Assembly: GCF_016026235.1 (NCBI RefSeq)
Contig: NZ_CP065613.1
Strand: one strand, 5' to 3'
DNA length: 64,000 nt
Origin: Escherichia coli
GTDB taxonomy: Bacteria > Pseudomonadota > Gammaproteobacteria > Enterobacterales > Enterobacteriaceae
Shown: piece by piece, positions 1-8,311 of the stretch
How the letters are laid out: each line of letters opens with the position of its first letter
Position numbering within the stretch: position 1 is the first letter of the stretch
The notes under the pieces: generated by a model
Told to the model about the DNA's origin: nothing
Database searches by the model: none
Seen by the model: the letters and a program-made list of their open reading frames with translations, nothing else
Program-made: the position numbers and the translations under genes

Positions 1-645
1 GCCAGAGCAAAAAATACTAAAGCTTTCCGTTTCACAAGTCAGGTTAATGACGCTATTAATCCTCCAAAACAACCAAGACAGCCACGAATTAGCGGAAACA
101 GAGCAATCACAGCAGCTTACTCAGCGAATATGAGCAAGCTAAAAGGCTTTGACCCTATTTTGCAGAAATACATCAAATCTCAATTTTACGGGCTATCTGC
201 TAAAGCTGGGGCAATGGATAATTCAAAATTCAATGAGAAGTTAGCTCAGTTAAATGCTTCAGTCAGAGAAGCAATTGCTAAAGCCAGAGGTCATACATCC
301 ACCAGCATTAATGGTGACAGAGCAGCTAGCAGCCTTGATAACCTGTCTTCAGCAGCAGTTAGAGCAGCAGGTGCATTTATCAGCTTTCAGGCTGTACTAT
401 CCGCTTATCAGCGAGTACTGGAAGTTGGTTTACAGCGTGCAAGTGCTGAACGTTCAATTGATTTCGTATTCGGTGACCAAAGTACACAGGTTAAAAAGTT
501 CATTCAGGATTTAACTCAAATTACTGGTATGGACACAACCGAAACACAAGCGCAATTTGCTTCATTTGGTGCATGAAGTGGCACACTGAATTTGGCCACC
601 TGAACAGAGGTGATATGCTCACCTCAGAACAACACAGGTGCTCCA

Positions 646-948
646 ATGAAAAAAAGAAATTTTAGCGCAGAGTTTAAACGCGAATCCGCTCAACTGGTTG
701 TTGACCAGAAATACACGGTGGCAGATGCCGCCAAAGCTATGGATGTTGGCCTTTCCACAATGACAAGATGGGTCAAACAACTGCGTGATGAGCGTCAGGG
801 CAAAACACCAAAAGCCTCTCCGATAACACCAGAACAAATCGAAATACGTAAGCTGAGGAAAAAGCTACAACGCATTGAAATGGAGAATGAAATATTAAAA
901 AAGGCTACCGCGCTCTTGATGTCAGACTCCCTGAACAGTTCTCGATAA
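646..948 (+). CDS. IS911 OrfA, transposase N-terminal DNA-binding subunit (100 aa)
   Basis: Begins [21 protein letters not shown], matching recalled IS911 OrfA. The ORF track begins 36 nt upstream at an in-frame M. Confidence 0.9.
897..903 (+). other. Programmed -1 ribosomal frameshift heptamer A-AAA-AAG of IS911
   Basis: AAAAAAG lies in the orfA frame as A AAA AAG within the orfA/orfB overlap; this is the known IS911 frameshift motif. Confidence 0.75.
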
Positions 949-974
949 TCGGGAAACTCAGAGCGCATTATCCT

Positions 975-1814
975 GTGGTCACACTCTGCCAAGTGTTCGG
1001 GGTTCATCGCAGCAGCTACAGATACTGGAAAAACCGTCCTGAAAAACCAGACGGCAGACGGGCTGTATTACGCAGTCAGGTACTTGAGCTACATGGCATC
1101 AGCCATGGTTCGGCCGGAGCAAGAAGCATCGCCACAATGGCAACCCGGAGAGGCTACCAGATGGGACGCTGGCTTGCTGGCAGGCTCATGAAAGAGCTGG
1201 GGCTGGTCAGCTGTCAGCAGCCGACTCACCGGTATAAACGTGGTGGTCATGAACATGTTGCTATCCCTAACTACCTTGAAAGGCAGTTCGCCGTGACCGA
1301 GCCAAATCAGGTGTGGTGCGGTGATGTGACCTATATCTGGACGGGTAAGCGCTGGGCGTACCTCGCCGTTGTTCTCGACCTGTTCGCAAGAAAACCAGTG
1401 GGCTGGGCCATGTTGTTCTCGCCGGACAGCAGGCTCACCATGAAAGCGCTGGAAATGGCATGGGAAACCCGTGGTAAGCCCGGCGGGGTGATGTTCCACA
1501 GCGATCAGGGCAGTCATTATACGAGCAGGCAGTTCCGGCAGTTATTGTGGCGATACCAGATCAGACAGAGTATGAGCCGGCGCGGAAACTGCTGGGATAA
1601 CAGCCCAATGGAACGCTTCTTCAGGAGTCTGAAGAACGAATGGATGCCGGTGGTGGGTTACGTAAGCTTCAGCGAGGCAGCTCACGCCATAACGGACTAT
1701 ATCGTTGGATATTACAGCGCACTAAGACCGCACGAATATAACGGTGGGTTACCCCCAAACGAATCGGAAAATCGATACTGGAAAAACTCTAACTCGGTGG
1801 CCAGTTTTTGTTGA
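975..1814 (+). CDS. IS911 OrfB, transposase catalytic part, expressed as an OrfAB fusion by -1 frameshift
   Basis: IS3-family integrase-type ORF in the -1 frame relative to orfA. The reading frame is expected to be entered at the slippery site near 897-903 rather than at the listed M. Confidence 0.85.
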
Positions 1815-3088
1815 CCACTTCAGCAAGTGCAACGACTACGATGGGTCTTGAAGGGTCAGAAGAGCTATTTAAAAACCTTACAGGTTATGCTCGTTTAATG
1901 GGGCGTTCAGATGAGCAGATTCAAAGAGCATTAACCGCAGTGTCACAGATGGCCTCTAAGGGTCAGGTGATGGCTGAGGAGTTGAAGGGGCAATTATCTG
2001 AAGCTTTACCGGGTGCTACTCAGGCATTTGCAAAGGCTTTAGGTCTGACTGAAAAACAGCTTTTCGATAAGATGAAAAATGGTGATGTTAAAGCCTCTGA
2101 TGCACTTCCTAAGTTTGCTAAAGAACTTGGTGCACAGATTAATTCAAGAGGTGGCTGGAAAGCTATTCAGGATTCTACGCAGACGATGTTAGGAAACTTA
2201 AAGAATACTTGGAACAACTCACTAACGGATATTTTCAGAGGTTCTGAAAATGGTCTGCAAGATTTCACAAGAAGCCTAACAACGCTTTTAAACAGTTTAG
2301 GTGGAAGTGGTAAAAGTCTTGGTGAATCTCTTGGTAGCTTGATGAGCGATATGTCGCATGGTGTCGATAGTCTGACTGATATCAGCTACAGGGTGAGAGC
2401 GTTCTTTGATGAGGTGACATTAGCTTACCGTGGTTTAACCGATGAGCAAAAGAAAGTAGTTGATGCTTTAGGTTCTGGCTTGATTAATAGTTTAAAAGTC
2501 TTGGCTGGTGTTATTGCTGTAAATAAAGTTGTTGGTGTAACCAGAAGTATTTACGGGCTTATGACTGCTATCACAAGATTAGGTCAGGTCGCTGATACAA
2601 CAGCGGATAACGTGAATAGAAAGAATGGGAAACCATCAAGATTGAATCTTGGGAATATGCTATTAGCTGGTAGCGCTCTCTATGCAGGTTATGAAAGATT
2701 AGCCTCTACACCTGAACGAATGGAAGCACAAGCTAAATTACCAGAGCTGGCTAAAGAGTCTGGACTTAAACCCGCTTTCACTATGGATGATGTTAAAGGG
2801 TGGTTTAATAGTGCTGCTATGAATCTTGCTAACTTCCAGCATCCAGAATTAAACAACATTAAGCAAGATTCAGCATTAACGAGTGCAGATATCCAAAGCC
2901 TGAGAGATGAAATCTCCGCTTTGAGCAAACGTATTCAGGAGCCTGTGAAAGTTTCACTTGGTGGTGAAGTTGCCATTAAACCAGATGAAACCAGCTTTAT
3001 GACCTTTAGCAGTAATATCTACGACCAATATGCAGAAGCTACGCTATTAAGTTCATCATTCCCAGAAGATGATTAATAATAGTCGAAT

Positions 3089-6413: not shown

Positions 6414-6560
6414 AGGTAATTTAAAAACGGTTCTGTGAAAGTGACACGAACCGATCTCCATCGATGTTACTCACCGATCTCCTTCACGGTAATACGCAGG
6501 TAGTACTTTGAAGAAGTTTAGTGTGAATCCTAACAAGCGATACTGACGATAGAATCTCAA

Positions 6561-8090
6561 CTATATGATAACCTCATCAACATCTATTAAACCCCTCTCA
6601 GTGACTTCAGAAAGCGACTGTATAGCCTCTGTAACGTCCTCTGAGGGGTTTTCTGTTATTGGTAGGTCAATTACCTTACCGTTGTGAAAAGTTACTTTAC
6701 AGCGACGTTTAGCGGCATCTATAACTATTTCTTTGAGTACGCCCTTGATAAGTAGCTGTGTCTCTACCATCCCTTCCTTTGTTGTCCTGTCAATATCTTT
6801 GAGGCTTCCAGTTGTGATGGCCTTTATCCGCTGTGTTTCCTCTTCGATATCATGATTGAGTTTTGATAGCGCATTCTTCATATCACGTAATTTCTCTGTG
6901 ATAATTGTCATGTCATCGAGTTCAATAGCGAGTTCTGCCATTTTTGAGATTTTACGCTGCAAATCTTCACGCTGTAATTTAAGGCTATCAATAGTGTCAG
7001 TATTTTCAGTTTCAAAACGGTCGCATAATGCGAGCATGTAAAGGATAGTTGCATCCGTTTGCTTACGACTGATAGCCTTTGCACTACACCTGTTAGCTGA
7101 ACGATTAGGACATCTGTACATCCCAAAACGTTTTAAGGCATATCCACCAAGAACAATAGTAGCCCCACACTCAGAACATTTGATGATACCCCTGAACAAG
7201 TTGACTGATAGCGGATTACTTGATACAGAAGCCCTACCATATTGCCCTGTGTTCAGTTGCTGTACTCGATAGAATAGTGACTCACTGATTATTGCGGGGT
7301 AGTAACCCTGAACTTCTTCACGTCCAGCAGGTGTGAAACATCCAATCACAGCACGATTTCTGAGTAGTTTCTTTACAGCAGTATCAGACCATCCCTTTTG
7401 TTTAGGTGTGTATTGATTCAATGACAAGTGGCCTTCATCGTTTAAAGTTCTGGTGATAGCCCAAAAGCTTAAACCCTGTAATCTCAGGTCAAATGCTCGT
7501 TTAACAACTTCCACTTTATCGGGGATGATAGTGAATGTTCGACGGTCATCATTCAGCCTTAACCATGCAGGACAACGCCTAGATACCTTGATACCTTCGG
7601 AGATGAGTTCTTTTTTACGGTTCCATGCAGCTTGGACACGCTCAGACTTCCTCAGACTTTCCTCATGCGCCCGCTGCATTATCAGAATGCTTTTAATCAG
7701 GGATAACGGGTCTTTTAAACTTTCTCGTGTGTAATGTTCACCATCGGACAGGGTGACTACATCTACACCAGCCCTTAAGATACGGCGTAATAGCTCAGAA
7801 GCAATATCAATATCCTGACGTGACAGACGGTCTAAACTCTCGATTAGTAGCGTATCACCAGCTTTAACAAGCCCTTTCTCGATAGCGGTTAGAAAGTCAC
7901 CTAGACCACCTTTCAGGTGCTTACCACTAAAAGCACTTTTCCCCAAATCTTTAAAGCTCAAGGATGAATCCAAGTAAAACTCAGGGTTCTTATCAAGCCA
8001 GTCAGTAACCAGCTTAGATTGTCTGCGTACAGAGTCCCCTTTTAGTTGTCGTTCACTTGAAAATCTGATGTAGCTGATTGCCCGTCTCAT
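6561..8090 (-). CDS. Large serine recombinase (phage integrase type)
   Basis: N-terminal resolvase-like catalytic region (AISYIRFSSERQ), a cysteine-rich zinc-ribbon-like segment (CSECGATIV...YRCPNRSANRCS) and a C-terminal extension. ATG at 8088-8090 is preferred over the TTG at 8096 used by the ORF track. Confidence 0.85.
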   Translation of the reverse strand: MRRAISYIRFSSERQLKGDSVRRQSKLVTDWLDKNPEFYLDSSLSFKDLGKSAFSGKHLKGGLGDFLTAIEKGLVKAGDTLLIESLDRLSRQDIDIASELLRRILRAGVDVVTLSDGEHYTRESLKDPLSLIKSILIMQRAHEESLRKSERVQAAWNRKKELISEGIKVSRRCPAWLRLNDDRRTFTIIPDKVEVVKRAFDLRLQGLSFWAITRTLNDEGHLSLNQYTPKQKGWSDTAVKKLLRNRAVIGCFTPAGREEVQGYYPAIISESLFYRVQQLNTGQYGRASVSSNPLSVNLFRGIIKCSECGATIVLGGYALKRFGMYRCPNRSANRCSAKAISRKQTDATILYMLALCDRFETENTDTIDSLKLQREDLQRKISKMAELAIELDDMTIITEKLRDMKNALSKLNHDIEEETQRIKAITTGSLKDIDRTTKEGMVETQLLIKGVLKEIVIDAAKRRCKVTFHNGKVIDLPITENPSEDVTEAIQSLSEVTERGLIDVDEVII

Positions 8091-8094
8091 ATTC

Positions 8095-8130
8095 AATACC
8101 TAAAATGATGTGTTTAGGAACCCATTATAC
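8095..8130. other. Prophage-chromosome junction (attR-type site) within mdtG
   Basis: mdtG-like codons diverge from the recalled K-12 sequence about 8120-8128 and are followed by phage-derived codons MGS and a stop. Inverted repeat CCTAAA-N8-TTTAGG at 8099-8118. Confidence 0.5.
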
Positions 8131-8311
8131 TGAAGACAATACCGGACCACATATTCAGGGCGGAGTGGCCGGTAACGCCAAGCTGCTCAACGTAGAGGGG
8201 TAAGAAGGGCATTACCAGACTGAAGGCGGCACCGGTAAGAAAACAGCCTAGCCAGGCGACGATCAGGTTTCGTTTCCAGTTTATAGGGGTGTCATTTTCA
8301 CAGGGTGACAT
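8114..8311 (-). pseudogene. mdtG: mdtG (yceE) 5' fragment, about 62 native codons, truncated by prophage insertion
   Basis: Translation [62 protein letters not shown] matches the recalled MdtG N-terminus, then ends MGS-stop instead of continuing into the transporter. Confidence 0.85.

Follow-up and report, generated by a model that had tools for sequence, protein, structure and literature searches.

We have found that the first 8,133 nucleotides of a 64,000-nucleotide stretch of Escherichia coli DNA (contig NZ_CP065613.1; the window hereafter means the whole of the stretch analysed) are, as judged from comparison with relatives, the right-hand two-thirds of a defective island that is integrated inside the coding sequence of mdtG and measures about 11.6 kb without its two insertion sequences (ISs). 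This part of the island carries a large serine recombinase (LSR) and genes for a phage tape-measure protein (TMP) and a tail tube initiator, and we describe the element as a phage satellite-like island with a putative satellite function. On balance we lean towards the reading that the family to which it belongs consists of PLE-like satellites or parasites of virulent Felix O1-like phages (Ounavirinae), and that the copy in the window is a defective member. A fuller version of this proposal is that the islands make up a hitherto undescribed Escherichia satellite family of about 11.5 kb, present also in other enterobacteria, that parasitises virulent Ounavirinae by swapping the core of the tail and that uses at least four chromosomal sites through interchangeable LSR/att modules; we put this forward tentatively, as a possibility that falls a little short of an even chance.

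The island enters mdtG at a junction that can be placed to the base. The truncated gene (8114-8311, minus strand) retains 62 codons of K-12 MdtG (MSPC...GIVFSI) and then runs into MGS and a stop codon contributed by island DNA, so that comparison with the K-12 translation confirms a first-pass annotation of this DNA, in which the frame had been described as intact for about 62 codons before it turns to foreign sequence. In an alignment with the K-12 locus, homology to mdtG ends at position 8127. We compared attB of K-12, attL of a related island (L001; the loci compared here carry L numbers) and attR of L001 and of the window, and found a 7-bp core common to host and island that reads ATGCTGA in attB and attL and ATACTGA in attR (8127-8133), and that corresponds to nucleotides 179-185 of mdtG, within codons 60-62. 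The attR of the window (8110-8133) consists of the attP-derived half-site GTGTTTAGGAACCCATT followed by the core ATACTGA, with the crossover probably lying within CTGA (8130-8133), and the attP reconstructed for the mdtG type has an imperfect inverted repeat, TTTAGGAAC...GTTCCCTAAA. Of 5,426 complete E. coli genomes, 20 have the identical mdtG junction and more than 5,390 have the site empty. These base-exact junctions with their shared core demonstrate, so far as nucleotide comparison can, that recombination between attP and attB by a large serine recombinase put the island inside codons 60-62 of mdtG. The earlier claim of an LSR element within this coding sequence therefore stands, and neither the junctions nor the strong homology matches of the genes can be put down to chance. 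Insertion within an open reading frame (ORF) is typical of serine-integrase phages. The chromosome flanking the island (lpxL, trhO, yceI, yceJ and further genes) matches that of E. coli at about 99% identity. As had been recognised, the window holds the right arm only; about 75 codons of the TMP gene and everything further left lie outside it. We predict that attL (..AAAATGTAATGCTGA|TATTTGTTCCCTAAATACAC..) lies about 7.1-7.3 kb before the first nucleotide of the window, and that beyond it come the remaining 348 codons of mdtG (its 3' part) and then msyB and yceK.

The recombinase itself (6561-8090, minus strand) is an intact protein of 509 aa, the length first reported for it, and starts 36 bases inward of the junction. 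It has the Pfam domains Resolvase (PF00239, residues 6-162, E=8e-16), Recombinase (PF07508, 2e-17) and Zn_ribbon_recom (PF13408, 6e-7) and matches PHROG 95, 'integrase', at 3e-81. The motif YIRFSSERQ near its N-terminus marks a resolvase catalytic domain with a serine nucleophile, the order of its domains (Recombinase and then zinc ribbon, in a protein within 450-600 aa) fits a phage-type serine integrase, and residues 244-459 weakly match structures of the C-terminal domain of the A118 serine integrase. The att sites of the mdtG type, which are simple, with a short core and an attP of imperfect dyad symmetry, are those expected of such an enzyme. The LSR of the window is 98-99% identical to those of two IS-free mdtG islands (L013 and L025), with a ratio of non-synonymous to synonymous divergence (dN/dS) of 0.15-0.18, and the mdtG site has been occupied independently by divergent islands. 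The nearest LSRs in phages, the YbcK-like recombinases of lambdoid phages, are 37% identical to it. One further candidate, a 12.7-kb record named 'Bacteriophage sp.' (MT836130), has only a distant LSR and proved unrelated to the island. Because the LSR is intact, excision of this copy may still be possible. We note that the LSR is co-oriented with the truncated mdtG (8091-8311), starting about 23 nt past the mdtG stop codon, and that the integrated recombinase may be transcribed from the mdtG promoter; the same co-orientation of LSR and host gene is found in islands at yecE, and is not found in those at the tonB site.

Relatives of the island define its full form. An IS-free element at the same mdtG site in E. 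coli A1 (L013) is 11,650 bp long, and the element of E. coli Ryan-0026, which has the same junctions, measures 14.0 kb, with 2.6 kb contributed by the IS element ISEc12. The A1 island encodes, in order, a small serine recombinase, an orphan Dam-like methyltransferase, a 325-aa helix-turn-helix (HTH) protein, several small ORFs, a 236-aa protein (p236, mis-annotated as 'transposase'), a 71-aa protein (p71), a TMP of 727 aa, a Dit_like protein of 262 aa (the tube initiator) and an LSR of 509 aa. Intact members share this layout, with the small serine recombinase and either the orphan Dam-like methyltransferase or HNH genes at the left, followed by a Rep-like initiator with internal iterons, and, at the right, small orphan ORFs, the coiled-coil p236, a protein of about 70 aa, the TMP, the tube initiator and the LSR; the block p236-p71-TMP-tube initiator keeps its order strictly in all full-size members examined. 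Islands of the same build lie in yecE (about 11.4 kb), between yciI and tonB (L022, about 10.9 kb and IS-free) and next to wrbA (similar in size). The LSR of the yciI/tonB island is only 33% identical to that of the window, and islands in yecE, at yciI/tonB and next to wrbA encode one and the same 236-aa protein, from which it follows that the LSR/att module can be exchanged with the rest of the island conserved. Together with mdtG, this makes at least four chromosomal sites that the comparison shows to be used through interchangeable LSR/att modules. Distant relatives of p236 (24-31% identity) are again found in mdtG islands of the same build, and one island of this build (L024; GCA_033726695.1, 4580-16120) occupies the homologous mdtG position in another genus, whose LpxL is 79% identical to that of E. 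coli. The LSR of L024 is 66% identical to that of the window, its tube initiator is 56-60% identical to that of any phage in our collection, and its presumed phage partner may not yet have been sequenced.

The left arms of these islands vary. Among mdtG islands the small serine recombinase beside attL is represented by non-homologous alleles on opposite strands (L001 13386-13937, plus strand; L013 6063-6632, minus strand). Islands with an alternative left arm carry AP2-type HNH endonuclease genes (L003 8904-9428, minus strand; L022 8580-8852; L023 8746-9033), one of which is 33-43% identical to the homing endonucleases of Felixounavirus garuso and recalls the phage-derived nucleases of PLE. 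In several genomes the yecE-type island has as its immediate neighbour a lambdoid prophage, likewise inserted in yecE, whose tyrosine integrase it adjoins (L015-L019 and L021; for example L015 7844-9587).

The build of the family bears directly on what kind of element this is. The first-pass annotation had taken it for a prophage remnant, a view that the relatives do not sustain: IS-free relatives measure 10.9-11.7 kb and carry two structural genes, whereas intact relatives of a prophage would be expected to reach about 30-60 kb. It had also named a lack of further phage genes to the left as a finding that would tell against that view, and this is what every relative displays, there being to the left of the TMP gene only the small recombinase, the methyltransferase, the Rep-like gene and orphan ORFs. 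Across the approximately 25 loci examined we found no capsid, portal, terminase, lysis, lysogeny or repressor genes, and searches of the island ORFs beyond the tail genes (PHROG, Pfam, NCBIfam and PADLOC) returned only an invertase, the orphan methyltransferase and weak matches to replication initiators. It could be argued that a full-size serine-integrase phage entered mdtG and then shed the greater part of its genome, so that two tail genes and an integrase are what is left; the tail genes and the LSR are real, integration within an ORF is what such phages typically do, and the IS insertions and deletions attest to decay under way. Some occupants of mdtG have indeed decayed further, to 5.6 kb and 8.1 kb, the 5.6-kb minimal variant (L011) keeping the small serine recombinase, one hypothetical gene and the LSR, without tail genes. 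Nevertheless, we regard descent from a decayed temperate prophage as very improbable, in that IS-free elements at four att sites share a size of 11-12 kb and a gene order, purifying selection acts on the core genes even between deeply diverged members, capsid, terminase and lysis genes are missing from every relative, the tube initiator has phage homologs in virulent Ounavirinae only, and the nearest LSRs of phages are the 37% identical ones described above.

The tail genes connect the family to virulent phages. When the island was compared by megablast with a collection of 50,697 phage-genome records, the match was limited to the Dit_like gene and the start of the TMP gene and was found in 215 records, mostly named as Escherichia, Salmonella or Felixounavirus phages; all of those inspected are Felixounavirus. 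For the tube-initiator gene, nucleotide identity between islands and more than 200 Felixounavirus genomes ranges from 88% to 97.6%, the highest value being over 536 nt, and the tube-initiator gene of the window is 87-88% identical to its Felixounavirus counterpart over about 550 nt. A tblastn search of all island ORFs against the whole genome of phage garuso gave consistent matches only for the TMP and the tube initiator, plus the HNH endonuclease of yecE-type islands, and tblastn of the Rep-like and 236-aa proteins against the 50,697 records gave no match. Homologs of the tube initiator occur in 298 phage records, all of them Ounavirinae-type virulent myophages of 82-92 kb. The island TMP keeps the first approximately 45 residues of phage gp17 and its C-terminal LLSSSxPExx and is 28-32% identical to it overall, and the island tube initiator is near-identical to gp18 over the first approximately 190 residues, the tube-like domain, and has a C-terminal extension of its own. 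These alignments show the two to be, in terms of homology, orthologs of Felixounavirus gp17 and gp18, and through this orthology the family has the specific genetic link to a helper phage that is expected of satellites in general. A search of phage databases with the recombinase and the TMP, which the first-pass annotation had suggested, led away from temperate phages: the best phage match of the LSR is the one at 37%, and the tail homologs belong to virulent Ounavirinae.

Structural work on phage Bas63 indicates which parts of these proteins make contacts. In Bas63 the last 25 residues of the TMP contact the puncturing protein and the hub, and the C-terminal extension of the tube initiator spans the baseplate (PMC12609058). 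The segments that the island has kept, which in Bas63 are those in contact with the hub and the tube, are thus the contact surfaces. Moreover, the near-identical tracts shared with strictly virulent phages imply that island and phage DNA meet in infected cells and that recombinant islands survive; such tracts fit a satellite or a defence role better than inert cargo. The cargo explanation would hold that this is an integrative element unrelated to phage infection, whose tail-derived genes have been domesticated for another function or are simply hitch-hiking, and it gains something from the fact that most island ORFs are orphans without phage homologs, from the absence of direct evidence for a helper in the data examined, and from the 5.6-kb variant that has kept its recombinases without tail genes. 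We think it quite unlikely, given that the order p236-p71-TMP-tube initiator is strict in every full-size member examined, that the tail genes share the Felixounavirus gene pool (at up to 97.6% nucleotide identity), which can come about only if island and replicating phage DNA share a cell and the recombinants survive, and that the segments retained are exactly the structural contact regions.

In the window, both tail genes are present and both are interrupted. The proximal part of the TMP gene (1-573, plus strand), which matches PHROG 4036 and Pfam TMP_3 and so upholds the tape-measure assignment first made for it, is open from nucleotide 1, its start and about 75 codons lying to the left of the window; the distal part (1823-3076, plus strand; PHROG 4036, E=7e-51) ends in the conserved C-terminus LLSSSFPEDD, a motif common to the TMP of the window and that of the phages. 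Joined, the two parts give an open frame of 607 codons, whose sequence runs colinearly with Felixounavirus gp17 and with the TMPs of islands L001 and L013. What had been noted as a phage gene of unknown function (3188-3997, plus strand) can now be identified as the tube-initiator gene, a homolog of Bas63 gp18 (PHROG 3721, E=5e-128; Pfam Dit_like). Its native codons stop at about 3918, the final 25 residues of the ORF coming from ISEc12, and its displaced last 11 codons and stop (..TLKKFSVNPNKRY, in the restored frame) are found at 6499-6546 on the plus strand. Removal of the IS restores a tube initiator of 257 aa, which is found uninterrupted in L004, and the IS-free ortholog of L013 matches the Bas63 tube initiator gp018 (PDB 9NDY) at E=1e-115.

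The interruption in the TMP gene is an IS911 of the IS3 family (574-1822, plus strand; 1,249 bp) with terminal repeats and a target duplication, GCA, at 571-573 and 1823-1825; it is 99.9% identical to RefSeq copies labelled 'IS3-like element IS911 family transposase'. That in the tube-initiator gene, 11 codons ahead of the stop, is an ISEc12 of the IS21 family (3919-6498, plus strand; 2,580 bp; ends TGCGTATT...AATACGCA) with a target duplication, GGTAG, at 3914-3918 and 6499-6503, and annotated copies in L001 and L003 match it at 99.7-99.9% identity. In the window copy a 1-bp deletion in a run of A at about 5464 shifts the frame of istA (466 aa versus 513 aa), istB lies at 5664-6413, and this copy is probably unable to transpose by itself. 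With these boundaries exact, excising each IS together with one copy of its duplication reopens both reading frames, and the earlier statement that both structural genes carry ISs is borne out. With its TMP gene split by IS911 and its tube initiator deprived of the last 11 codons by ISEc12, the tail module of this copy is dead, in agreement with the original suspicion that the element is defective. For this window alone the consequence is modest: mdtG is inactivated and the island copy is crippled. We note that insertions of ISEc12 arose independently at four positions, with a separate target duplication at each (window 3919-6498; L001 23859-26439; L003 19553-22133; L023 14846-17426), that all four lie in the right end of the island, in the 3' end of the tube-initiator gene or inside the LSR gene, and that draft assemblies of the lineage of the window have it at a further position (L027); this suggests that ISEc12 favours certain targets or that the right end of the island is a hotspot for it.

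A conserved intergenic element of about 65 nt, GCTACGTGAA-N36-TTCACGTAGCTCACGCTTAA, which contains a 10-nt inverted repeat, lies upstream of the tube-initiator gene at 3089-3153. The inverted repeat, GCTACGTGAA...TTCACGTAGC, is followed by TCACGCTTAA. The element stands ahead of the TMP gene, the tube-initiator gene or both in L001 (19649-19718 and 21790-21860), L003 (14690-14760 and 18169-18239), L013 (14760-14825) and L014. It is absent from the genome of phage garuso, and in the phage the TMP and tube-initiator genes abut without a spacer. Its predicted RNA fold is no better than that of shuffled sequence (z=-1.1), and a search of Rfam found no RNA family within the island. It is possible that the element is an operator or a promoter.

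The islands also appear equipped to replicate and to leave the chromosome. The Rep-like HTH protein (325 aa) has weak matches to replication initiators in PHROG, and its gene contains three 23-bp iterons within the coding sequence (L013 8540-8606); another Rep allele has four different 23-bp iterons in the same place (L031, reverse complement, about 11330-11425). As the iteron sequence differs between Rep alleles, initiator and origin of replication (ori) appear to form modular pairs. Iterons inside the initiator gene resemble the arrangement of lambda-O-type initiators. The family thus has what satellites in general possess, namely an integrase and a replication module within about 5-20 kb and without a full set of virion genes. 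The LSR, tube initiator, TMP and p236 have dN/dS values of 0.03-0.41 over dS values from 0.04 to more than 2, by which measure the core genes of the island are under purifying selection. A p236/p71 marker is present in 336-467 of the 5,426 complete E. coli genomes (about 6-9%), in at most three copies each and always on the chromosome. Its sequences form 3,130 clusters at 90% identity and 21 at 50%, with source names that include E. coli, E. fergusonii, E. albertii, E. marmotae, Shigella and Salmonella. The attP of the yecE type, GTGTATTTAAACGTGTCTAATAAAAATCATCAAGGTCTAAATACAC (repeat GTGTATTTA...TAAATACAC), was found once in a metagenome collection, in a contig of 11,473 bp (L031; ERZ1090866 NODE-760) that holds the whole island circularly permuted around attP with no host flank. 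The order in L031 is the C-terminal part of Rep, small ORFs, p236, p71, TMP, tube initiator, LSR, attP, small recombinase, methyltransferase and the N-terminal part of Rep, and its ends fall in the AT-rich iteron region of the Rep gene. L031 is most likely, to judge from this arrangement, an excised circular or concatemeric form.

If the family does consist of satellites, a mechanism can be proposed. Upon phage infection the island would excise and replicate from its own ori, and its TMP and tube initiator would enter the baseplate and tube of the helper. The p236 protein, for which structure prediction gives a coiled-coil hairpin with prefoldin-like matches, and the protein of about 70 aa might act as chaperones that help to fold the long helical TMP and the tube initiator, a role that we suggest because chaperone genes occupy that position in phages. 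The outcome would be either tails dedicated to the spread of the island or sabotaged phage tails. The helper would supply capsid, packaging and lysis, so that the island might be packaged by the helper, or might merely sabotage tail assembly. Dependence on a helper phage is in either case something that we infer from gene content.

In a different explanation, the island is a dedicated anti-phage defence island that is not transferred by phage: decoy TMP and tube-initiator proteins would dock, by way of their conserved segments, on the baseplates of Felix O1-like phages and poison tail assembly, and mobility would come from the LSR and other routes. The chimeric character of the proteins, in which phage-identical contact segments are joined to an island-specific remainder, the recent exchange with virulent phages, the high diversity of the family, such as an arms race would give, and the fact that we recognised no packaging function could all be accounted for in this way. 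However, scans with PADLOC and the other resources revealed no known defence system or domain in the island, and a decoy alone would need neither an iteron-bearing replication initiator nor an excised form; we consider defence without transfer unlikely. The two lifestyles are in any case not exclusive, and PLE acts both as a satellite and in defence (PMC7145576).

Several observations weigh against the satellite proposal and are best taken together. In the datasets examined (IMG/VR and metagenome contigs) we found no induction, packaging or transfer of an island by a Felix O1-like phage, and no attP of the mdtG type. Seven IMG/VR matches that might have counted as evidence of packaging were set aside, since they appear to be prophage calls, as opposed to virome contigs, that reach the island by way of the adjoining lambdoid prophage in yecE; that they come from isolate genomes was read from the contig names. 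The contig L031 has 6x coverage and a Nextera adapter at one end, and its attP junction could derive from a tandem array in the chromosome. Within the island no pac or cos site, small terminase or gene for redirecting capsid size was recognised, and the model of p236 matches generic coiled coils only. The phage-genome collection contains no island DNA other than the two tail genes, and no Felixounavirus counter-nuclease with the DNA-binding domain of the island Rep was found in it. Many copies of the island have decayed by IS insertion or deletion. For the copy in the window, look-ups of exact proteins (the LSR, the altered tube initiator and the 422-aa TMP fragment), directed at its left arm and attL, gave short draft contigs broken at ISs, or the right flank.

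Should the satellite reading be correct, roughly 6-9% of complete E. coli genomes would harbour a chromosomal parasite dedicated to Felix O1-like phages, which are classic typing phages and are often considered for therapy and biocontrol. Such a parasite could lower phage efficacy, alter tail composition and move DNA between strains. It would be the second enterobacterial case, after the elements linked to Justusliebigvirus, of satellites of virulent myophages that carry TMP and baseplate genes, and substitution of the tail core would stand beside capsid remodelling as a general satellite strategy. The family would also be a natural source of serine integrases that can be interchanged together with their att sites in E. 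coli (mdtG, yecE, yciI/tonB and wrbA-proximal). As a matter of annotation, loci of this kind are now labelled 'transposase', 'phage baseplate protein' or incomplete prophage, and should not be taken for decayed prophages. Elsewhere in the window, at about 19614, we note a 79-bp deletion relative to E. coli Ryan-0026 that fuses yceH in frame to yceM and creates a hybrid ORF of 497 aa (18981-20474), which comprises yceH minus its last residues and yceM minus its first approximately 22 residues, including the GxGxxG motif.

In the literature we found no description of a satellite of Ounavirinae or of an element that integrates in mdtG, and the island differs from each of the systems that it resembles. 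With serine-integrase phages and the LSRs of cryptic prophages (A118 and Bxb1-type; DLP12 YbcK-like) it shares the architecture of the recombinase, integration in a coding sequence, a short core and attP repeats. Unlike them, it is not a phage genome, and the YbcK-like LSRs are only 37% identical to its own. PICI, cf-PICI and P4-like elements are likewise islands that reside in the chromosome, are of similar size, possess an integrase and a replication module, and depend on the structural genes of a helper. They differ in having tyrosine integrases, AlpA or Pri-Rep/primase, functions that act on capsid size (Sid, Cpm) or a capsid of their own, and temperate helpers; marker genes of PICI, cf-PICI and P4 were absent from our scans of PHROG, Pfam and NCBIfam.

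A closer parallel is provided by putative E. coli satellites, encoding a TMP and a baseplate component, that have been linked to the Justusliebigvirus phages Muut, Inny and Mt1B1_P17 (Barth et al. 2023, PMC10055350). These too are E. coli islands that have TMP and baseplate genes, lack most tail genes, have modular replication and have virulent myophages as presumed helpers, and a subset of them resembles the present family further in using a serine recombinase and non-tRNA sites (PMC10055350). Unlike the islands described here, however, they encode a decoration protein and a major capsid protein, their initiators are of the RepA_N type, and most of them integrate at tRNA genes by means of a tyrosine integrase (PMC10055350). 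Scans of our islands with PHROG and Pfam found no major capsid or decoration genes, RepA_N initiators or tyrosine integrases, the tail genes are of the Ounavirinae type as opposed to the Stephanstirmvirinae type (Muut), and those island accessions that we tested do not occur in the supplementary text of PMC10055350.

It is PLE of Vibrio cholerae that the family most calls to mind. Both are compact LSR-integrated islands with a replication initiator and ori of their own, mostly orphan genes and no full structural set, and both have a virulent myophage as partner (presumed, in the case of the present family), exchange DNA with phage and, in some members, carry HNH genes related to homing endonucleases. 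The host here is Escherichia and the link is to Ounavirinae, whereas PLE resides in V. cholerae with ICP1 as helper; the islands measure 11-12 kb as against about 18 kb, and Pfam gave no match in them to RepA_N, the domain of PLE-type initiators. By gene content, as distinct from a comparison with PLE sequences, the family is set apart in that it carries TMP and tube-initiator genes in place of a capsid scaffold or other known PLE effectors.

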